From Protoeuglena noctilucae (lineage: Eukaryota), in assembly GCA_958009085.1 (NCBI GenBank), contig OY253674.1, forward strand, positions 1 to 64,000: DNA of 64,000 nt, written 5' to 3'. The position numbers were made by a program, and so were the translations under genes. Below are positions 454-12,324 of this stretch, piece by piece (the first letter of the stretch is position 1; every line of letters starts with the position of its first letter). Below the pieces are notes generated by a model. The model ran no database searches, was not told the origin of the DNA, and saw nothing but the letters and a program-made list of their open reading frames with translations.

Positions 454-526
454 GCCGCTGTAGCATAATGGCTATTGCGTTCGCTTCGTAAGCGAAAGGT
501 TGGAGGTTCAACCCCTCCCAGCGGCA
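454..526 (+). tRNA. tRNA-Thr(CGT)
   Basis: Acceptor GCCGCTG/CAGCGGC plus discriminator A; anticodon arm TTCGC-TTCGTAA-GCGAA; T arm GGAGG-TTCAACC-CCTCC; followed by TTTT at 532-535. Confidence 0.93.
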
Positions 527-614
527 CTGCGTTTTGCCGCTCCCAGCACCCCCTTTGCCGAGATACGGAGCAGAGCGAAATATATATTGCGTAGTCCATC
601 ACTATCGAAACAGC

Positions 615-686
615 ATCGTTGTGGCGCAGCGGAAGCGTGTGGGGCTCATAACCCCAAGGTCCTAGGTTCGAATCCTAGCAACGATA
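615..686 (+). tRNA. tRNA-Met(CAT), initiator-like
   Basis: Acceptor ATCGTTG/CAACGAT with A1:U72; D region GGCGCAGCGGAAGCG typical of eukaryotic iMet; anticodon arm TGGGG-CTCATAA-CCCCA with consecutive G:C pairs; TATATAT ~30 nt upstream; TTTT downstream. Confidence 0.92.
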
Positions 687-747
687 GCATTTTGCCCGCG
701 AGGGTCTATGTCGGCAAAACGACTCCCCCGGTGTACGGGGGTGCTAT

Positions 748-828
748 CGACAGAGGTGGGATTCGAACCCACGCGTCTTACGACATCCGCTTAGCAGGCG
801 AACCCCATAGCCACTAGGGGACTCTGTC
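748..828 (-). tRNA. tRNA-Ser(GCT)
   Basis: Reverse complement folds as acceptor GACAGAG/CTCTGTC plus discriminator G, anticodon arm TTCGC-CTGCTAA-GCGGA, long variable arm, T arm GTGGG-TTCGAAT-CCCAC. Confidence 0.93.
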
Positions 829-1269
829 TTAGGCGACCCGAGGGCAGGGTTGCCGTAGATGTACGTAAAATCATTGTAAGGGATGCCCCCATAGCGACCA
901 CCAAAACGGGCGCCCTGGCAGCGCCGCGCAGCTCCCTCCATCGTCGCCGTCATCGAGGCGGATTTTCCGGGCCGGCGGCAACGATGGAAACCCCGGGGTG
1001 TCAGCTGCCCCGGGGGACGGCACTTCTGCCGCAAGGCGTGGCTCTGAGAGTCATAGCACCCCTTGACTGTTGAATCGCTCATCATCATCGGCCGGCGGCC
1101 CCTCAGTGTTCACGAAGGGTGTGCGCACCCTCGTGCCGCGGTTGACCCACGCTCTAACCCTGCCGGTGTCAGACGTGTTCGGGCTGAACCATTACGCCTT
1201 AAGTCTTGTGGGGGGGGGGGGGGCGGCGGCCCCCTGGAACAGAACCCAGGCGCGGGCGGCCGTGGCGAC

Positions 1270-4200
1270 CCGCTGGGTTGACGAAAGAAAATGACGATGC
1301 AAACGAACGAATCAGAATCAAAGCGAACAAAGCGAACAAAGCCATATACCTAGAGAACCAGCGCCCTCCCGGCCGTCGTCCGGCTCGTCCGGGCGACCGA
1401 TTCGGCGCGCTCTTCCCTCTGCATTCTTAACCGCAGACCGACGCGCACGCGGACACCAGAGCCCGGAGCAAGCTCGCCCAGCACACGACGGACTCGCCCC
1501 CCGCCCCGACGCCACAAGCCCCCCGGAGCCTCGCCCGAGCACACGAGCGGCCTCTTTGTGCCCTCGATTGAGTATTGCCGCTCCGCGCCGCGCTCCCGCG
1601 CCCCCAGCGGGCGCACCCCGGCCCCTTCCTGACCGTTGTTAGCGCACCACGTCGCCCGGGCTGCGCGTTGTGACGCTCAACGTCCGCGGCCTGGGCGACG
1701 GAACCTCCTCCAAGACTCACTTGATCCGCAGGTCCCTGGCCCGCAAGCGGGCGGACATCGCCGTCCTCACGGAGGTTCAGGGCCGCGACGCTGCCAAGCT
1801 TTCCGACGCCTTCTCGTCCTACAAGAGCTTCTGGAACCTCGGCGCCCACGCGGGCGTGGGTCTCCTCTTCCTCAAGAACGGCTCTGCGGCGAATCCCGTC
1901 GCCGTGCCGCCCAGGGAGCCCACCGCCCACGATGACCAGCTGGCCGCCTTGTCTGGCCGCGCTCTGCGCGCCAATTTCGCTTGGAATGGCCTGCCGCTGA
2001 GCCTGATCGGTGTATATGCTCCTGCTTCTGCCTCTGTCGGCGACACGCAGCGCTTCGCGGCGGGGATCCGCCGCTTCCTCCTCCCTGCCAAGCTCGGTGC
2101 CCGCCAACTCCTCCTCGCAGGCGATTTCAACACGACGACGGGCCTGCCGGACGAGCGCCTGTCCAAGAGCTACAAGAAGGACCTCCAGCGCCACGAGGCG
2201 TGGGTCCACCACGTCCTCGGCCCCGCGGGCCTCGAGGACGTCCACCTCAAGATCTTCCCGGCCAGGCCGGCCGCCTTCACCTGGTTTGGTCCCCCCGTGG
2301 CTGGCTCTGTTGCTGCTGCGCGCATTGACCGTGTGCATGCCAGCGCGCCCCTGCTCGCCAAGACGCACCCCGTGGTGTGCCACGTGGCATCCGGGGTCCC
2401 CCGCCTCGACCACCTGGCTGTGGTCCTCACCCTCACGGCGGGGGACCCTGAGCGCGCCCGATCGCGGCGCCGGCCGTACCCTGTGGCTCAAGCGCGCCCT
2501 GCCTTCCCGCTCACCGCGGCTGATGGCTCCCCTTCTGCCCCCGTGGTCACGCTGCGAGCCACTGCCGCGTCCCTCCGCCCCCTCTTCATGCGAGACCCCA
2601 TCCACGCTGGGCGCACCCTGGCCGCTAAAACCCGCTCCCTCTCCGCCGCCCACCGCAGGGAAGAGAACCGTGCTGTCGCTGAGGCCCAGGAAGCCATGAA
2701 GACGGCGCAGGCGCGCCTGGATGCGAGCCCCACGGGCAGCAACGCCGACGCGGTGGTCCAGGCCTCCGCTGTCCTGGCTGCTGCCCACGCCTCCCGGTTG
2801 CAGGCGGAACAGCTGCAGCAGCGCCACGCGGCTCGCCTGGAGGGGGAGCGCCCCAGCCGCATGATGACGGAGCGCATATCGGGCCCCCGAAAGCCCGCCG
2901 AATCCATCGTGGTGCTCCGTTCCCCGCAGGGCAAGACGCTCCGAGGTCGCGAGGCCAAGGAGTTCATGCGGACGCAGTGGGCCGGCCTCTACAAGGCCGT
3001 GCCCCGCGACCCTGCATTGGTGGCAAAGTTCCTTTCTGAGTCGCAGGGTGCCCCCGCCCAGCTCCCTGCCTCAGTCATCACCGCGCTCACGGCCCCTGTC
3101 CTGCCCGCAGAGGCCCGTGAGGCGATTATGGGCCTCCCGGCCCACAGCGTAGGCGGGCTTGATGGTGTCCCCCCCTCGCTCCTGCGTGCAGTCGCGGATG
3201 AGGCGGCGCTTGTCGTGGCTGATGTTGCCAACCGTCTTCTCGAGGGCCACCCTGTTCCCGCTGGGTTCTCGGACGCAGCCATCCGGCTGCTGCATAAGGG
3301 GGGGTCCAGAGCTGACTGGACCAACTACCGACCCATCGCCCTCCTCACCTCCCTCCGCAGGGCGGTGGCCAAGGTCTTTGGCAATCGCCTCCTCCGCAAG
3401 GAGGGGGACGATGCCAGCGTCATGGAGCGCCTGGTCCACGGGGACCAGGCGGCCTCCGTCCCGGGCCGCGATATCATTGCTAATATCGCCACGCTGCAGC
3501 TCCTTGACGAGACCCTGACCCTCGAGAACCGTCCCGCCCACGCAGTGTTCCTCGACATCAAGAAGGCCTTCGATTCATTGGACCATGAGTACCTCCAAGC
3601 CGTCCTCACCCATGCGGGCCTGCCCGCCCCCTTCGTGGGGGCGGCGATGGCCCTCCAGGTGGAGTCGAAGGCTGTACTTGCCTTCGAGAGCGGCTGCTCC
3701 CGGCCCTTTTCTATAGAGCGTGGGGTGAAACAAGGATGCCCCTTAAGTCCCCTCCTGTTCGTCGTTGCCATAGAGCCGCTGGCTTGTCGCCTTCGGTCCC
3801 TCGCCGCATCCGAGCCGCGGGCGCTCGGTGTTTCTCTTCCCCCGGGGTCGTTCGGCAGCCTTCCCCCGCAGGATCTGGCATCGCGCTTCTTCGCGGATGA
3901 CGCAGCTGCCCTGACCGCAGACCTGCCCGCAGCATGGGAAGCGCTGTCGGCGACCCTGGAGGACTTTGCCGCGGCCTCTGGCCTCGAGGTCAATGCAGCC
4001 AAGACGGCAGTCTACCGGCTTGGCAGGGGCGATCACGCCTCATTGGAGGCAGCAGCGGTGGCACGGGGCTGCCGCTGGTCCATGCCCACGGGGTTGGGCG
4101 TGGGCGTGCGTTACCTGGGTGCCCACACCCGCGATGCCCTGCACCAGGCCTGGACACGCACGCAGGGCGTGATGATCCAGCGCGGCACCGCCATCGCAGG

Positions 4201-7123
4201 GTTGCATCTGTCCATCCAGGGGAGGGCGGGGGCGGCCAGTGCCTATGTGGCAAGCACGGCGAGTTATCTACTCGAGACGTCCCCCGCCCCCGCCTCTATG
4301 GACCAAGAGGCGGAGAAGCTTGTCAACACCCTGGTGCAGGGCAACCGCGCGGCTGGCTCCCTGTGGCGTCGCACGGCTGACTGCATGGTCTTTGGCCCGC
4401 GCGCTGAGGGTGGGCTGGGGGCGACCCGGCCCACCGTGCATGTCCCAGCGCGCCGCATGCGCACTTTGGCAAAGATTCTCACGGGCGCGCCGGGCTTTGG
4501 CCCGGCTCGCCACGTGCTGGACCGGGCCTTGACGGTCCTGGGCGGCCCTGGCGTGGTATGGCTTGCCCGGGACTCCAGGTTGCCCAGCTCTGCGGGTGCT
4601 GCCTTGGCTGCTCGCGTCCCTGGTCCCTCCTACCTTGGGGCGCTTTTGGCGGCCCCTGCCGCGCTCGGCTCCCTTGTGGCCCTCCCCCCGGCTCGCTCCC
4701 CTGTCCCTGAGCCCCAGCCTGCTGCCCAGTTGCCTTCCCTGGAGATCCCATTCTCCCCCCTTACCGACGCAGGCTCCTCGGACTTGCTGGTCGACGCTGC
4801 CACTGGGCTGCCTCTCGCTGATGGCTCGTTCCCGCCGCAGGCTCGGAAGATGGCCAAGGTTCGCCTGGGGTGTGTGGGTCACCTCCTTCGTGTGCGAGCC
4901 GCGGCCGCAGGGCTCAAGATGGCCTGGGACTCCCCGGGAGCCGTGGCCTCGGAGGTGCTGGAGGCGTCGTGGTGCGGGCGGCTGTGGGGCACGCGCTGGG
5001 AGCGGCTGCTGCACCTTCGCTTGGGCGACACGACGTCGGCCAAGGACCCCGTCAAAAGGGTAATAATCCAGGTTTGCAAGGCGCTTGAGGGGCTGGGCGT
5101 TGTGGGCGCGCCTGTGCCTCCCCGTGCCAATGCCAGCCGTGTGGTGCTTGAGGGCGTGGCTGAGCAGCTCGTGGGTATCCTGGTTGCGTGGGACCCTTGG
5201 CAGGGCCTGGTTCTGTCCCCTGCGGCCTGCGGCTCCCTCCCTGCTCACCTCCGCTCCCTTGCCGCAGGCCAGGTCCCCTCCCCCGCAGACCTGGCGAGGG
5301 CGGAGCACACACTGGCGGCTTACTGCGCGCAGCAGGACTCTCAACTCCTCCCCCGTCCTTCCCGCCCCCAGGCTGCGCCGGTCGCTGTGCACTCCGCCCC
5401 CCGCCTGGCCCCCGAGCCCGCGTGGTGGGCGGAGCTCAACCTGCCCCGTGTCACCCCCTCCACGCAGTGGGCCCTCGAGCCTCATCGGCGCCCCCACGAA
5501 GTGCCCGTCCCCCTTCCGCTCCAGCAGTACACGGTTCGACATGCGGTGGGGGCGGCCTTCGACCGGGCCTCCATCACCTCGCGGCTTGCCCGCAAGGTGG
5601 AACAGTGGTCCCGGGCCGGGGCGCTCGGGGAGGCCCAGGACGGGCCAGACGGGGTCACGGCGGCGGGCATGCATGCCGCTCTCAAGACCATCAACGCTCT
5701 CCCCCTGTCTCCGCAGATGCACGAGGCGCTGTGGCTGACGCTGGCCGACGCGCGTGCGACCGCATCGCACTGCTACTGGCTCGACCTCACCACGTGCCCC
5801 CTCCTCCGCAGGGATGGCGAGCAGTGCTCCCACGACGACACGGTCGCCCACGCCTTCTGGGCCTGTGACAGGGCCCAGGAGGTGTGGGAGACGGTCAAGG
5901 CGGCCGCGCGGGCCCCGGCCCTCTCGGCGCGGGCGGTGTTCCACCTGGCCCCCCCTCCCTCCAGCCGTTTCACGCAGTACTCGTGGGCGGTCACCGTGGG
6001 CGCGGCTTTCAAGCTCATCTGGAGGCGCCGCCAAGAGCTCCGGGAGAACTGGCGCTCCCCGTCGACGCCCGCAGGCCTCTATGCCCAGCTTGGCGCCATC
6101 GTGGCAGCCGAGGTCCAAGACACTCTGGCTGTCACTGGGGCAGGGCGCCTTGCTGCTCTGCTGGGGAAGCGGGGCGACAGGCTCGTCCTCGCCCACGCCA
6201 ATGGCCGCAGGTTCTCGTGGCGCGGCTTCCCGGCTGCCGAGTGAGCGGCCGGGAAGGTCCGCATTGCAGGTCCGCGTGGGAGGGCGTCCCAGGGGCAGTG
6301 CCAGCAGCTGCAGGTAAGACCCAGGTGAGGCCGCAACAGGTGGGGGCTCGCCAGCGTATTCCATGGCGCCATATGCATGCTTTGCTCTGTCCTGGCGCAG
6401 CTGTACACCTTCTGCTGGCGGGGGACGTGCTAGGCTGCCACGGCAAGGTGCGCCCCACCGGGTCTGCTAGATGGCACTCCTGTGATGGTGTGGGTAGCCT
6501 GCTCGCGCGTGCGCGGGACGTGGTGAGTCTGCACATGTTCTTTCGGTGCTTCTTGGACGTGCAGGAGTTCAAGGTCGCCGGTCCTCCAGGGCCCAAAGTC
6601 CGGGTTCGCTCTCTAGGGACAGTGGTTATTGCCCGTCGGTGCTCGTTCCGGGGTGCCCGCAAGGAAACCTCGGGCGGGCGCCAGCGGGCGGGAGCCTAGC
6701 AGAGTCGGGAGCAGTAGCCGAGGGTTTCACGTCATGTTCGGAGTGTTGCAAAGGCTGCGGCGTCCCCCTCGTGGGACAGAACGGGGGACCCAGGTCCCCG
6801 AGATCCGGTCCCCCCAGTCCCTTGGGCGCGCCACTCCCCTAGCACACGCGTTCAGGTGGCCTGATGACGCTTCCGCCCCCGGGCCGCTTTGCAAAGCTCC
6901 CTCGCACTCTCCGAGTGTGGATCCCTAGGGGCCAGTGGGGGGGTTCGCCCCCCTGTGCCCGGCACCCGAGGCGGGAAATGACGAGCTCGAGATCGTGGTC
7001 CCTCACGGGTCACGGTTGGTGTCCAGAGAAGTGAGAGGCACCCGCGTCTGGCACCAGGTGCTGACGTGTCGAGCTCCGATCCCGCCGCGGGCTTTTTTTT
7101 CTTTTTTTTTTTTTTTTTTTTTT
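1270..7123 (+). mobile_element. Non-LTR retrotransposon (L1/Tx1-like), apparently full length
   Basis: Intact APE-RT-zinc-finger ORF, bounded by the direct repeat GCCGTGGCGAC (1259-1269 and 7124-7134) and ending in a T tract (7093-7123). Boundaries are inferred from the candidate TSD. Confidence 0.8.
1670..6244 (+). CDS. LINE ORF2-type polyprotein: AP endonuclease, reverse transcriptase, C-terminal Cys/His finger
   Basis: APE motifs TLNVRGL, LTE, GVYAP, LAGDFN, RIDR, DH; RT motifs NYRPIALL, FLDIKKAFDSL, GVKQGCPLSP, FADD, GLEVN, RYLG; C-terminal C..C..H..C (CPLL...CSHDDTVAHAFWAC). 1524 codons without a stop. Confidence 0.96.
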   Translation: MTLNVRGLGDGTSSKTHLIRRSLARKRADIAVLTEVQGRDAAKLSDAFSSYKSFWNLGAHAGVGLLFLKNGSAANPVAVPPREPTAHDDQLAALSGRALRANFAWNGLPLSLIGVYAPASASVGDTQRFAAGIRRFLLPAKLGARQLLLAGDFNTTTGLPDERLSKSYKKDLQRHEAWVHHVLGPAGLEDVHLKIFPARPAAFTWFGPPVAGSVAAARIDRVHASAPLLAKTHPVVCHVASGVPRLDHLAVVLTLTAGDPERARSRRRPYPVAQARPAFPLTAADGSPSAPVVTLRATAASLRPLFMRDPIHAGRTLAAKTRSLSAAHRREENRAVAEAQEAMKTAQARLDASPTGSNADAVVQASAVLAAAHASRLQAEQLQQRHAARLEGERPSRMMTERISGPRKPAESIVVLRSPQGKTLRGREAKEFMRTQWAGLYKAVPRDPALVAKFLSESQGAPAQLPASVITALTAPVLPAEAREAIMGLPAHSVGGLDGVPPSLLRAVADEAALVVADVANRLLEGHPVPAGFSDAAIRLLHKGGSRADWTNYRPIALLTSLRRAVAKVFGNRLLRKEGDDASVMERLVHGDQAASVPGRDIIANIATLQLLDETLTLENRPAHAVFLDIKKAFDSLDHEYLQAVLTHAGLPAPFVGAAMALQVESKAVLAFESGCSRPFSIERGVKQGCPLSPLLFVVAIEPLACRLRSLAASEPRALGVSLPPGSFGSLPPQDLASRFFADDAAALTADLPAAWEALSATLEDFAAASGLEVNAAKTAVYRLGRGDHASLEAAAVARGCRWSMPTGLGVGVRYLGAHTRDALHQAWTRTQGVMIQRGTAIAGLHLSIQGRAGAASAYVASTASYLLETSPAPASMDQEAEKLVNTLVQGNRAAGSLWRRTADCMVFGPRAEGGLGATRPTVHVPARRMRTLAKILTGAPGFGPARHVLDRALTVLGGPGVVWLARDSRLPSSAGAALAARVPGPSYLGALLAAPAALGSLVALPPARSPVPEPQPAAQLPSLEIPFSPLTDAGSSDLLVDAATGLPLADGSFPPQARKMAKVRLGCVGHLLRVRAAAAGLKMAWDSPGAVASEVLEASWCGRLWGTRWERLLHLRLGDTTSAKDPVKRVIIQVCKALEGLGVVGAPVPPRANASRVVLEGVAEQLVGILVAWDPWQGLVLSPAACGSLPAHLRSLAAGQVPSPADLARAEHTLAAYCAQQDSQLLPRPSRPQAAPVAVHSAPRLAPEPAWWAELNLPRVTPSTQWALEPHRRPHEVPVPLPLQQYTVRHAVGAAFDRASITSRLARKVEQWSRAGALGEAQDGPDGVTAAGMHAALKTINALPLSPQMHEALWLTLADARATASHCYWLDLTTCPLLRRDGEQCSHDDTVAHAFWACDRAQEVWETVKAAARAPALSARAVFHLAPPPSSRFTQYSWAVTVGAAFKLIWRRRQELRENWRSPSTPAGLYAQLGAIVAAEVQDTLAVTGAGRLAALLGKRGDRLVLAHANGRRFSWRGFPAAE

Positions 7124-7134
7124 GCCGTGGCGAC

Positions 7135-7540
7135 ACGGGCCTCCCAGCCAACCACCCTCCCCTCGCGCAACTCCTCACCGTGGTGGACGGCCGAAGTTGC
7201 CGGTGGCCCAGGCTACTGGGCTGCCCCCACCTGACAGCTCTTTCCCCCCGCAAATTCGCAAGATGTCCAAGGTCCATTTGGGGTGCGTGGGTCGCCTCCT
7301 TCGCGAGCGGGCCGCATCCGCAGGGCTCTGGATTGCGTGGGACCCCCCACGAGCCGTAGCCTCGGAGGTGCTGGCGGCCTCCTGGGGCGCGCAGCCGTGG
7401 GGGACCCGTCGGCAGTGCTTCTGCACGTCCGTTTGAGAGACATCACGACTGTCAATGACCCCGCCGAAATGGTCACGATCCAGGTTTGCAAATCCCTGCA
7501 GGGGCTCGGCGGCCACGGCCGCCCTGCCTTGCACTGGTAA
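7135..7540 (+). pseudogene. Decayed fragment of a related LINE ORF2
   Basis: Translates VAQATGLPPPDSSFPPQIRKMSKVHLGCVGRLLRERAASAGLWIAWDPPRAVASEVL, versus VDAATGLPLADGSFPPQARKMAKVRLGCVGHLLRVRAAAAGLKMAWDSPGAVASEVL at ~4790-4960 in the intact ORF. Frameshifted and stopped. Confidence 0.88.
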
Positions 7541-9110
7541 GGACGGTGGTCGTCGCTCGGCGGCCTTCTGTCTTATCTGGCGGCGCAGGCAGCAGCTTTG
7601 CGAGAACTGACTGGCGCACCCCTTCGACGCCAAACGCGAGGTCACCAGGACACGGTGGCCGTCACTGGACTGGGGCGTCTCAATGACCCCTTGCACCCTG
7701 TCTCAGCTGCGCCTGTCACTCGTCTGCGGGGGACGTGACAAGCCGCCACGGCAACGTGCGCCCCGCCGGCTCTGCCGGACGGCAGTCCTACACCTGCCAG
7801 AGCGTTGGCCCCTCGGGTGCGCCGCTCCCCACCGCCCGCATCCTGGGTCATGCACTCTGCTTCGTTGCGCTTCAACACTTGCACTCGTGGATCGTGAAAC
7901 CCTCTCAGGGCCTAGCGAAGAGACTCGCGCTGACCCTATGCCCGGCTCCTCTAGGCAAAACGATGAGCCTGGGTCTGCGTCGGTGCCCTCCGGAGGTGCA
8001 GGTGGTGCCACATCTGCGCCCGACACCAGGGGTGTCAGACATGCTCGGGCGCTGATCCCCGCCTCAAGTCTTGCTTTGCTGCTCCTCTCCCCCTTGCCAG
8101 CCTCCCAGCCTCTCGCTTGCTCGCACCCTACGACGCACGGCCCCACAGGTGTCCGTCCCCCATGCACCGAGAGCACATGGCCAGGCCACTCCCTCGGCAG
8201 ACGGGGCAGAGAGCCCGCGTTTCGACGACCCTGCGACGGCGGGCACCGTTGAGGTGGCAAAACCTACGGCCCTCGTGAGTGTGACCCCCCTCGCGCTGCA
8301 CCCACCTCTCCACAGATGGGAGCCAGACGAGGAGACCCTCCCCGCGGCAGGCCTCGCAGCTGGCGTGCCTCTTCCCCGCACACGCGGAGCACGCCACCCC
8401 GACCCGCCTCTTGTACGCCCGGACGCCCAGCCTGCGTGGGAGCTCCAGGCATGGGTATGCTGACATGCGAGGGCAGCCATCCCGGCACGGACGAACCCGC
8501 TGCCCACCTCACTTGACCCCGGCGAGGAAGACGGTGGAGCCCAGCACCGCCGTGCCGCCAAACACGACCACCGCGCGCACCAAGGCACCCGACCTGTGCA
8601 GCAGCGGGGTCGCTCTCCCTGCAGCCGAGGAGGAGACAGGTGTCGGGGAGGAGACGACTGCGCGCACGCGCAAGGGCCAGCGCCATGCCTTCCGCCGGGC
8701 ACCTGCTGAGGGCTGCGCTGGACCCCCGCGCATTGCTGCGCACAGCACGCCCCCCGTGGGCCCCCCCTAAACTCCCCGCGGTCCTCTAGCTACCCTTGGG
8801 ATCCGTCAGGCGTCGCCCATCGCTCGCCTCCGAGAGCACAGGCGCGAGGAGGGCCGGGCTGCGAGGGCGCACTGGTGCTGGAGTCACCGCTGGTGGGGAG
8901 GGAGGCTGGGGCAGAGACAGCCGGGTCCTCTGAAAGCTCCCGTCACCCACGCGGCCTCTGGCAGCGACACTGCGGCGCTACCTCGCCAATGAAGCGCCAG
9001 CCCGACCTGCATGAAACGCTTGTGCTCTTGGTGCCCCCCCGGGCGAGCAGATCCCGCTGAAGTCTGTCGTTCCGAGGAAGGAGGCCCCTGCTGGATTGCC
9101 GGTCGACGCC

Positions 9111-11642
9111 ATGCTGGCTGTCCGGGCGTCCTGCGCGCCGGCCCTCGGCTCGAACACGAAGGGGTCCCCGGTGGTCGCGCTGCCGATCGCATCAAGGACG
9201 TCGCGCGTCGGTGAGCCTCGGGAGGCGCCCTGGGCGGGTCCCGCGCCCGCATCGGGGAACGGATAGTCCCCGCTGCCAGCCTCCTCGTCGAGGGGTGCCT
9301 GGGCGATCCGACTAGACCAATAATTTTTTGGTGCGCGCTCACTGCCATCTCGCGCGCCGTGAGCCGCGGCCCCGGACCACGCGGGGCGAGGACGCTGGAA
9401 AACTAGCTGCTCGCGCTCCCACCGCAGCTGGAGCCGCTTTCCGAGGCGCCTCCGCGCTCGCACAGGCTAGAAATGCCGCTCCGAGGGCCTATATGAGGGA
9501 TCTGCGGGCCAGGGCCTCCAAGGTTGGGCGGGACAGGGACCGCTCTCGACGCGCGCGCCATCGCAGCGGCCAGCCGGCGTCCCGCGGCCGGCGCGGCCCC
9601 CTCATTGCCATGTACTTGAGCGGTGCGCTTGCGTGTCTCCCTGCAGAACGGCCAATACGACTACGACGTCCTGATCATCGGGTGCGGCGTGGGCGGTCAC
9701 GGAGCGGCCCTGCATGCCGTGGACTGCGGGCTCAAGGTGGCCATCTGCGAGGGCCACGACATCGGGGGCACGTGCGTGAACCGTGGGTGCGTCCCCTCCA
9801 AGGTGACGGCCACGCACAGGCTTGCGCGGGAGGAGGGTCTGCTCTCTCGGCCCCATCTCTCCCGCTTCCCAAGGCTCCACACCCATCGGTCGCGCACCCT
9901 CGCAGGCGCTCCTAGCGGCGTCCGGCAAGGTGCGGGAGTTCCGCGAGGAGCAGCACCTGAAGCAGCTCGGGATCCACCTCAACGGCGCCCGGGTCGACTA
10001 TGACCGGCAGACGATCGCCAACCACGCCAAGGTGGGGCCACGCCACCGCGCCGCCTGCAGCCTCCCGCTCTCCCAGACGCTTCTTCTGACGCCATTTGCT
10101 GCCTCCACCCGCAGAACCTGGCCAACACCATCCAGGGCAACCTGCAGCGGTCGCTGGAGGCGCTGGGGGTGGAGATCCTGCGGGGCAACGCCAAGCTCGT
10201 GGGGCCCAACACGGTGTCGTACGGTCTGCCCGGCCGCGTGGACGTGGGTGGCACCGTCACGGCCAAGGACATCATCATTGCCACGGGGTCCGTGCCCTTC
10301 GTGCCGCCCGGCATCCCCATTGACGGCAAGACGGTCTTCACCAGCGACCACGCCCTGAAGCTGGAGTGGGTCCCCGACTGGTGCGTGGCGTGGGTGTGCC
10401 CGGCTGCTGCCGCTCCGCCTGCCCCCGCACGCAGCGACCTGAGCCACGCATCACCGGCCCCACCCCTCCCCCGTCCCCAGGGTGGCCATCATCGGCTCCG
10501 GGTACATCGGCCTCGAGTTCGCGGACGTCTACACGGCGCTGGGGTCCGAGGTGACCTTCATCGAGGCCATGGACCGCATCATGCCCGGGTTCGACCGGGA
10601 GGTGGCGAGGCTGGCCGAGCGCGTGCTCATCACGCCCCGCAAGATCGACTACCGCACGGGCGTGCTGGCCACCAAGGTCGTGCCGGGCGTCCCCGGGGTT
10701 AAGCCCGTCGAGGTTCACCTCACGGACTTTAAGACCAAGGTGAGGGACCGCGATGGGGCGGGCGGGAAGCAGAGTGACCAGCAACCAGCCGAGGGCGGGG
10801 TTCGGGGCGCGCCGCGCTCAAGTGCCTCGCGCGCTTGCCTCGCCGCAGGAGGTGGTGGACGTGATGGAGGTGGACGCGGTGATGGTGGCCACGGGGCGCG
10901 CCCCGTACACCCAGGGTCTGAACCTCAAGGCGGTGAACGCAGAGACGGACAGGCGCGGGTTCGTGCCCGTGAACGACCTCATGCAGGTGACGCTGTGGCT
11001 GGGGGCGGTGGGGGAGGGAGACCACGGCTGCTGGGGTGCACGGCTGTGTAACGCACGGCCCCATTCGTGTGACGTCCCCAGGTGCTGGACAAGAGCGGGA
11101 ACCCCGTGGAGGGTCTCTGGTGCATCGGCGACGCGAACGGGAAGCTGATGCTCGCGCACGCGGCGTCCGCCCAGGGCATCGCGGTGGTGGAGTGCCTGTC
11201 GGGCCGCCAGCGCAAGGTGAACCACAACGCGATCCCCGCGGCGTGCTTCACGCACCCGGAGGTGAGCTTCGTGGGCCTGACGGAGGAGCAGGCGACGGAG
11301 CGCGCCAAGGCGGAGGGCTTCGAGGTGGGGGTGTCCAAGACGTCGTACAAGGCCAACTCCAAGGCGCTGGCGGAGCTGGAGCCGGACGGCATGGCCAAGC
11401 TCATCTACCGCAAGGACACGGGGGAGATCCTGGGGTGCTGGATCTTCGGCATCCACTCCTCGGACATGGTGCACGAGATCAGCGCGGCCATCAACATGGG
11501 CCAGACGGTCGAGGACATCAAGTTCAACGTCCACGCGCACCCGACGCTGGCCGAGGTGCTGGAGGAGATCATCCGGCACGCCAAGGTCGAGAGGAAGGGG
11601 GGGGCGCGCGCGCAGGCCAAGGAGGTGGCCGCCGCCAAGTGA
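9111..11642 (+). CDS. LPD: Plastid dihydrolipoamide dehydrogenase (E3), spliced
   Basis: Transit-peptide-like exon 1 ([12 protein letters not shown]..., 9111-9210); [15 protein letters not shown] motif; redox [24 protein letters not shown] motif; C-terminal [12 protein letters not shown] introns. Confidence 0.93.
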
Positions 11643-12324
11643 GACGGGAAGCAGGGGCGGGGAGGGGGCTGGGGATGGAGGTGGTTGCTGCCACGAGTGA
11701 CGGGGCAGGGGCAGGGGGGTTTGCCCCAGGCGCAGCTGCGGCGACAAGCTCGCGGTAGGCCAGCAGCGCAGACGTTGTGTGTGAAAGCAGACCTGACGGT
11801 GCGCATGGTGCGTGCAGTTGGACCCGCTCCGTTTCATGCCGCACGCGGCATGCGACAACGCCCAGGGCGTCTATCTTGCACAAACGCCTAGGCCATCCAT
11901 CTCACACACACGAAACCGTAATCCGCCTAACCCGCTGCGGCCAGCACCGTCAGCGGCACTGGCAGGAGCGCCCCTGAGGAGCGCCGCTGGGGCAGGTGCC
12001 TGGGGGACTCCCGAGGCAAGAGCCCAGCAGCCAGGGCACGCGACTAACGGGACCAAGAGCACGATACGCGACCGGGGCCCTTGCTGGGCCCTGGCCAGCC
12101 CCCCGCCGATCGGGGCCATCAGGCGAGGGGGCACGCACGTGAGGGGCCGCGACCGGCGCAGGCGGGGCAGGGGCGGCACCCGGAGACAGGGGACGCGCCA
12201 AGGGAGCGGGGGGACGGGCGGGGGTAGGCACAGAGGGCGGGGCAGGGGCAGGAGTGCCGGCGAGGGGCGGGGCAGTGCGCGGCTGGCACACCCGCTCGAC
12301 CGGCACGTGCGTGTCCCTTGCGCT

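Follow-up and report, generated by a model that had tools for sequence, protein, structure and literature searches.

An L1-like LINE family with T or G tails on interchangeable 3' modules, inserted upstream of tRNA genes in a green alga

An intact LINE at the left end of the contig

The window analysed here is the whole stretch of the first 64,000 nucleotides of contig OY253674.1 of Protoeuglena noctilucae, which forms the left end of contig C7 in a 26.3 Mb assembly of 27 contigs (labelled C1-C27). Positions 1270-7123 hold an intact endonuclease-reverse transcriptase long interspersed nuclear element (LINE), designated family A, with an 11-bp target site duplication (TSD) on both sides. The features of the element, which shares much of its 3' part with a sister form designated family B, are:

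1259-1269 (+): left TSD of the family A element, GCCGTGGCGAC (by sequence match)
1270-1642 (+): 5' region, the longest 5' end of family A found, with an open frame lacking an ATG at 1295-1639
1643-6244 (+): open reading frame ORF2, 1533 amino acids, uninterrupted, with an APE endonuclease, a reverse transcriptase and a C-terminal CCHC motif
1670-2356 (+): APE-type endonuclease (Pfam Exo_endo_phos, PF03372; amino acids 10-238)
3317-4018 (+): reverse transcriptase with QG.PLS and FADD motifs (Pfam RVT_1, PF00078; amino acids 559-792)
5795-5866 (+): CCHC zinc-knuckle-like motif, read in the translation
6245-6984 (+): 3' untranslated region (UTR) common to families A and B, 88% identity by alignment
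6985-7092 (+): A-type terminal module, ~60% identical to the B type, which travels with the T tail
7093-7123 (+): T8-C-T22 tail, on the sense strand
7124-7134 (+): right TSD of the family A element, second copy of GCCGTGGCGAC

The 11-mer at 1259-1269 and 7124-7134, with 13 of 14 positions identical on extension, and the T8-C-T22 tract at 7093-7123 had been pointed out in an original prediction made from the letters of the window, and both were reproduced. The only two exact occurrences of GCCGTGGCGAC in the window start at 1259 and 7124, with none on the minus strand; the chance of the 11-mer is 1.4e-6 per position (~1.4e-4 per 100 positions), and a match of at least 11 nt to the left flank was obtained at 1 of 5000 random window positions. 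The tract is the sole run of T or A longer than 9 nt across the 64 kb, and it lies on the sense strand because the open reading frame at 1643-6244 (+) carries the endonuclease and reverse transcriptase (RT) domains. An empty-site allele of the locus was sought at joints in public contigs, and none was present among the matches listed.

The first in-frame ATG of ORF2 lies downstream of the endonuclease domain. Three near-full-length copies of family A start within 55 bp, the two others beginning at positions 1321 and 1325, and in all three the upstream frame is open and is ended by an in-frame TAG directly before ORF2. A Pfam search with this 115-amino-acid frame gave no match, and no ORF1 was identified; the frame is either the end of a truncated ORF1, in which case every copy would have lost its 5' end, or part of a true 5' end with a non-AUG start or read-through. 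The second half of the CCHC motif aligns to residues 1133-1158 of human L1 ORF2p, below significance, and Pfam zf-RVT had no match in the ORF2 protein.

T tails and target site duplications of family A

Copies of family A were collected by a DNA search of the genome with the 3' end of the element (29 matches), and the ends of both forms were also searched for with motifs in which the tail was not part of the query. A T tail of 5-41 nt was present on all 16 A-type ends examined; five of these ends had been recognised partly through the T run, one of the five consisting of a tail only, and two copies with interrupted or truncated ends (on C8 and C19) were excluded. The tail-blind A motif gave 14 matches, 11 of them T-tailed, compared with a single match for the reversed control pattern; the three tailless matches are absent from the DNA-search matches. 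TSDs were scored as exact flanking repeats of at least 10 bp, for which the null of the same search was 12/3000, and were found at 7 of the 16 A ends, with one further in a nested site.

Several individual copies are informative. On C6 a 20-nt copy of the A end, together with T18, sits between TSDs, and on C4 an A copy is inserted into a known family D end (family D being a related LINE described below). In another copy the two repeats of a 15-bp TSD are 26 kb apart, a large element having inserted between them. The closest pair of long A ends, which differ at 1 of 430 nt, agree in their junction and both carry T18. The left TSD copy was preceded by no or one T in the eight clearest cases. Over the A and B tails together, poly(A) followed none of the 35, and no downstream flank was common to any two copies. 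Interruptions within tails were C in 7 of 8 cases in T tails and A in 5 of 7 in G tails. The signals TGTAA and AATAAA are both missing from the element.

The original prediction had proposed that the T tract is the 3' end of the family itself and the 11-mer its TSD, with no poly(A), and the 16 T-tailed ends with their copy-specific TSDs bear this out. It had asked for copies to be aligned at their ends: all proved to be T-tailed with differing flanks, and about half had an exact TSD of at least 10 bp. Neither a poly(A) upstream of the tract nor a separate minus-strand insertion contributing the T tract, with an 11-mer that is no TSD, was encountered. A GC hairpin had also been noted before the tail (CCCG-CCG-CGGG, 7081-7091). 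It is present in one predicted fold, and was rejected as a signal: the terminal fold was no more stable than shuffled sequences (z -1.02 and +0.38; A, B and C ends -1.1 to +0.4) and two T-tailed copies lack the hairpin.

A 65-nt A-rich insertion with short local duplications lies in the 3' UTR of an A copy at C6:45.3 kb (locus L117, ~3257-3322), and may be an opposite-strand tail-only insertion.

A sister form with G tails

A second form, family B, was absent from the account of the original prediction although one of its ends lies in the window at 1103-1223. This copy and two neighbouring remnants are placed as follows:

970-1099 (+): 5'-truncated 3' end of family D with an (ATC)n tail, 98% identical to the end of 9-kb D copies
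1093-1102 (+): left TSD of the family B insertion, CGGCGGCCCC
1103-1207 (+): B terminal module, a 5'-truncated copy, 97% identical to other B ends
1208-1223 (+): poly(G) tail of the B copy, G-T-G14
1224-1233 (+): right TSD of the B insertion
7135-8075 (+): family C remnant, older and degraded, 76% identical to ORF2 4799-5099, its terminus resembling that of B and lacking a clear tail

Matches to family B track A to ~6985 and then diverge into another terminal module. Identity between A and B falls from 97% over 4900-6244, where the B frame is open, to 88% across the 3' UTR and ~60% over the final 110 nt. A G tail of 6-21 nt was found on 19 of 20 B ends, the exception being cut short before the junction, and all 18 matches to the tail-blind B motif were G-tailed. 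Exact flanking repeats of at least 10 bp were present at 4 of the 20, with one further in a nested site. A G tail together with its flank was also recovered in contigs of two public runs.

Two mosaics separate the tail from the body of the element. A copy on C16 has an A body with a B end and carries a G tail, while a copy on C10 has a B-like body with an A end and carries a T tail; tail type therefore follows the terminal module (the last ~110 nt) and not the element body. The original prediction had offered termination by RNA polymerase III (Pol III) or uridylation of the transcript as the origin of the T run. Neither Pol III termination nor ordinary uridylation is supported as the main cause, given that a 97%-identical sister ends in G and that the mosaics follow the last ~110 nt; the G-tailed form rules them out as a general cause.

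Insertion upstream of tRNA genes and nested arrays

The array in the window stands beside a subtelomeric tRNA cluster:

454-527 (+): tRNA-Thr(CGT), called by ARAGORN, in the subtelomeric tRNA cluster
615-686 (+): tRNA-Met(CAT), called by ARAGORN, in the same cluster
748-828 (-): tRNA-Ser(GCT), called by ARAGORN, with the element array upstream of its 5' end (828) and pointing away

Genes for tRNAs were taken from strict ARAGORN calls (relaxed settings were abandoned because many of the calls were false), and one doubtful 95-nt call on C12 was excluded from the distance counts. Among 33 young A or B stretches from all retrieved copies (identity of at least 85%), 23 lay upstream of a tRNA gene at no more than 1 kb and were oriented away from it (binomial p 3e-40, even when all 452 first-look candidates were counted as tRNA genes). 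For thirteen insertions directly adjacent to a tRNA gene the distance to its 5' end is 138-189 bp (median 158), and for three others it is 81, 203 and 345 bp; at longer distances, pieces of family D lie between. Viewed from the genes, 9 of the 24 nuclear tRNA genes among the matches listed had A or B upstream at a distance of up to 1 kb, and six of the remaining tRNA matches form an element-free tRNA-Ser array. Two tRNA-like stretches noted by eye upstream of the C10 and C18 copies had no Rfam support and were counted as misses.

No sequence was common to the TSDs, and targeting is therefore positional. Positional targeting accounts for the nesting, with later insertions at the same spot building arrays. 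The order outward from tRNA-Ser in the window is D, B, A and the C remnant; on C18 a B copy received two A copies, one after the other, at its 5' junction, and serial insertions were seen on C18, C5 and C22 as well as in the window. Several tRNA-anchored arrays are present on each of C5, C10, C18, C19 and C20. The family C remnant was probably the earlier occupant of the site into which the A element inserted; no empty site was found in copies of this remnant. The D copy in the window starts ~150 bp upstream of tRNA-Ser and shows, by eye, a 10-bp repeat at 970-979 and 1090-1099.

Some further features of the tRNA loci were recorded. Many tRNA genes occur in close convergent pairs, 3' end to 3' end, and each gene of a pair has an element array of its own upstream (window 454-828; loci L109, L110, L113-L116, L118 and L158), and several are subtelomeric (C2, C7, C11, C17, C18, C20 and C21). 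On C24 (15.9 kb; loci L164 and L165) six tRNA-Ser(GCT) genes stand in tandem ~2.3-3.1 kb apart, with no A, B or D insertions. Three related elements of 19-28 kb, with terminal inverted repeats and apparently 4-bp TSDs, lie inside tRNA-anchored LINE arrays at C6 ~46.1-70.1 kb, C19 ~118.2-146.4 kb and C8 ~151.7-170.9 kb (ends at loci L158/L117, L109/L136 and L110/L127, respectively). The element on C8, of ~48% GC, has genes for an rve integrase and for an AAA_30 helicase-like protein; these may be large DNA transposons or virus-like elements.

Proposed mechanism and alternative explanations

The best explanation of these results is a young L1-like (APE-RT) LINE family with two interchangeable 3' terminal modules, A being followed by a T run and B by a G run. 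Both forms insert by a process of the target-primed reverse transcription type, with 5' truncation, TSDs of ~8-18 bp and never poly(A), and most of their sites lie upstream of a tRNA gene, at ~140-190 bp, the element turning its 5' end towards the gene.

As to the tail, we lean towards a run that is encoded in the source copy, with reverse transcription starting inside the run and slipping there. The U or G run would be encoded in the DNA of the source copy and transcribed, ORF2p would bind the terminal module in a stringent recognition, and cDNA synthesis would start inside the run, so that nothing downstream would be copied. The nicked DNA end would need about one pairing base, Watson-Crick or wobble, and slippage within the run would reset the length of the tail at every insertion, slippage in 3' repeats having been described for UnaL2 (PMC3747384). 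The site itself would be reached by tethering to the Pol III machinery, or by use of the first accessible DNA upstream, as for TRE5-A, with no recognition of sequence. An encoded run is favoured because the closest A ends share both junction and T18 and because no downstream sequence has been carried along, and extended pairing with the target would not be needed because in clear cases no more than one tail base stands before the left TSD copy. A hint of minimal pairing comes from the base that follows the tail: 11 of the 16 T tails are followed by C, and 9 of the 19 G tails by A (C against A, Fisher p 0.018, or 0.006 with first runs counted), which is what G:U and T:G wobble between primer and tail would produce. 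The test was post hoc, covered 35 ends and took the next base also at unconfirmed TSDs.

That limit on the wobble test counts against the proposed mechanism, and so do several other observations. In two A copies the T tail is joined 7 and 12 nt early, the junctions vary (GGG, GGGC and GGGCC) and one insertion consists of a tail only (TSD of 14-16 bp), all of which tailing of ragged RNA ends would fit equally well; about half of the copies lack an exact TSD of at least 10 bp. No conserved terminal stem-loop was found. That one protein makes both tails is inferred only from the 97% identity of the 3' parts, because no full-length B was found, the longest being 2.2 kb. Four of 13 listed public runs were covered, all in the form of contigs, and A and B sequence was recovered from three marine metatranscriptome samples of one study; these contigs carry genomic flanks, may be DNA and show no RNA 3' end. 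Ten of the 33 young stretches do not show the tRNA arrangement: three are distal parts of arrays split by a large element, one faces its tRNA gene and six have no called tRNA gene within 1 kb. The A copies also have no identified ORF1, whereas the targeting of TRE5-A has been linked to ORF1p. The fullest form of the proposal, in which one enzyme serves two swappable 3' modules, the RNAs truly end in oligo(U) or oligo(G) so that poly(A) plays no part in replication, a single wobble pair suffices for priming and ORF2p alone, with no ORF1, reaches the region ~160 bp upstream of tRNA genes, is tentative, and we rather doubt it as a whole.

The early-joined tails, the variable junctions, the tail-only insertion and the lengths of up to 41 nt would all be accommodated if the tail were untemplated, a host terminal nucleotidyltransferase adding U to A transcripts and G to B transcripts as chosen by the module, or ORF2p extending the nicked DNA end. 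We consider this unlikely, as a 110-nt RNA module would have to direct the addition of poly(G), and we know of no activity that adds poly(G) to nuclear RNA. Near-identical copies, moreover, have the same junction and tail, and the interruptions (C in T tails, A in G tails) are such as templated miscopying or mutation would give. An encoded run could also act by protecting the transcript, which would end exactly within it: oligo(U) would be bound by La/Lsm-type proteins and oligo(G) would block exonucleases. The finding of 3' transduction or poly(A) at none of 35 ends fits such a transcript, as does the lack of TGTAA and AATAAA, but initiation inside the run gives an identical pattern in DNA, and we hold an exact RNA end to be improbable. 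U ends face a further difficulty under the untemplated account, namely that human L1 reporters with 7U or 26U ends showed essentially no retrotransposition (PMC6191937).

Transcription by Pol III that ends in the T run, with the polymerase perhaps drawn in by the adjacent tRNA gene, was considered since the elements adjoin tRNA genes and the 5.8 kb sense strand has no run of T5 or longer and only two of T4. With 0.7 T5 runs expected by chance this absence is uninformative, no A box or B box was found in the element, the elements point away from the tRNA genes and the G-tailed form is left unexplained. The U ends made by Pol III are a few nucleotides long, and tails of 13-41 nt exceed them; this origin is very improbable. 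We give next to no credence to a foreign T tract, whether a pyrimidine target that existed beforehand, the poly(A) of a minus-strand insertion or an artefact of assembly. One copy does have T7 before its left repeat. Against this, the same junction recurs across copies with unrelated flanks and the TSD begins right after the tract, the left TSDs of the eight clearest cases are preceded by at most one T, the 20-nt copy with its T18 is itself flanked by TSDs, and a G tail with its flank is also present in the contigs of two public runs.

Comparison with known elements

The host is taken to be a green alga from the rbcL gene encoded on contig C27, whose best solved-structure matches (8q04, 9hvm, 2v69 and 1gk8) we take to be mostly Chlorella and Chlamydomonas Rubisco. 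Family A shows the features of the L1 group in its N-terminal APE domain with RT, C-terminal CCHC motif, 5' truncation and variable TSDs, and departs from it in lacking a poly(A) or A-containing 3' repeat, which is typical of the group and not strictly defining. Human L1 ORF2p was the best solved-structure match of ORF2 (74.8 bits, vs 45 for R2 proteins, these being the only two kinds matched), and human L1 has the same domain order, 5' truncation and variable TSDs. To our knowledge human L1 does not target tRNA genes. The T-tailed family A also differs from it in that human L1 with U-run ends is practically inactive (PMC6191937).

The closest parallel in targeting is TRE5-A of Dictyostelium and NLTR-B of Polysphondylium, which have the same APE-RT-zinc finger ORF2 and the same insertion upstream of tRNA genes in opposite transcriptional orientation (PMC5911963, PMC5006619). 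Families A and B differ in lying 138-189 bp from the tRNA gene vs 44-54 bp for TRE5, about three times the distance, in ending in T or G and not in oligo(A), in their green-algal and not amoebal host, and in the lack of an identified ORF1 in A. The word "alga" is absent from the main text of PMC5911963 and PMC5006619. The nested arrays, mostly of 5'-truncated copies represented by 3' ends, recall the green-algal L1-like elements Zepp and ZeppL (L1-1_CR) (PMC8226300). Zepp forms one cluster per chromosome (PMC8226300) and, like L1-1_CR, has an (A)n tail (PMC3747384, Table 3), whereas the A/B arrays are anchored at tRNA genes, several per contig, and end in T or G.

The original prediction had likened the element to Kibi and Koshi of the Tx1 clade, which share the APE-RT architecture, a target preference and pyrimidine tracts at the 3' side. 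The likeness does not extend further: Kibi and Koshi insert in (TC)n and (TTC)n microsatellites of teleost fish (PMC4494074, PMC3812793), while A carries its own run, its TSDs share no sequence as a sequence-specific Tx1 target would, and its targeting is upstream of tRNA genes. The stringent LINEs UnaL2 (TGTAA) and I factor (TAA) and the poly(T)-ended plant short interspersed elements (SINEs) p-SINE and Au likewise end in something other than poly(A), but the repeat of A and B is a mononucleotide run of T or G on an autonomous LINE, and no link to those SINEs has been shown. For such SINEs Ohshima proposed as yet unidentified LINEs that recognise poly(U) (PMC3747384, section 4.1), and of the 240 flowering-plant and 29 green-algal families in Table 3 of that review, none is a LINE ending in (T)n or (G)n. 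A literature search found neither an autonomous LINE with a T or G tail nor an algal LINE targeted to tRNA genes; Repbase, supplements, most subscription papers and parenthesised terms lay outside the reach of the search.

In a quick tree of 87 RTs, built without reference L1, Tx1, Zepp or TRE sequences, A and D were sisters (SH-aLRT 100) on an unresolved node. No named Tx1 or Zepp sequence was among the RT search matches, the nearest non-self RTs being 24-41% identical to A, with one 46% match that is probably family D. Among relatives at 80 distant metagenome loci, neither a tRNA gene nor a clear T or G tail was found, so the pattern is documented in this one organism.

The combination of T or G tails on swappable 3' modules with targeting upstream of tRNA genes is real and makes this an unusual L1-like LINE in a green alga. 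Poly(A) is treated as the normal end of an L1-type template and U ends block human L1; the near-identical A/B pair carries T or G tails. That the final ~110 nt set the tail is already evident from natural recombinants, which offer a test of how LINE tails arise and of priming without poly(A). The family would supply an actual case of the poly(U)-type LINE, so far a hypothesis made for poly(T) SINEs. The use of tRNA genes as safe sites, known from reviews on yeasts and social amoebae, is here extended to a green alga with a compact genome. Should the fullest form of the proposal be true, it would amount to a poly(U)-recognising type of LINE, to a LINE with G tails and to tRNA-gene targeting that arose independently in green algae. 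An RT that has no need of poly(A) and inserts at intergenic sites flanking tRNA genes would also be of interest for transgene insertion in algae.

Neighbouring LINE families and other features of the window

Family D is a sister of A with 46% RT identity, and ends in (ATC)n. It is a 9-kb LINE with endonuclease, RT and RVT_3 (RNase H-like) domains (loci L129, L131-L133, L137 and L140) and is itself associated with tRNA genes, often downstream of the gene (25-105 bp on C6, C17 and C20) in the manner of TRE3. A shorter D-related element, ~80% identical to the 5' and 3' parts of D and also with an (ATC)n tail, recurs beside tRNA genes, was seen in arrays on C5, C10, C13, C15, C18, C19, C20 and C22, and may be a non-autonomous partner of D. 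Family E (loci L134, L135, L138 and L139) is a more distant endonuclease-RT LINE with a conventional poly(A), present in 3 of the 4 loci shown, and with no tRNA association (a tRNA gene in none of the 4 loci).

At the outer end of the window, positions 1-235 consist of TTAGGG-type telomere repeats. After the LINE array, an intron-containing gene lies at ~9600-11650 (+), which by a motif reads like, and is presumably, a dihydrolipoamide dehydrogenase gene.

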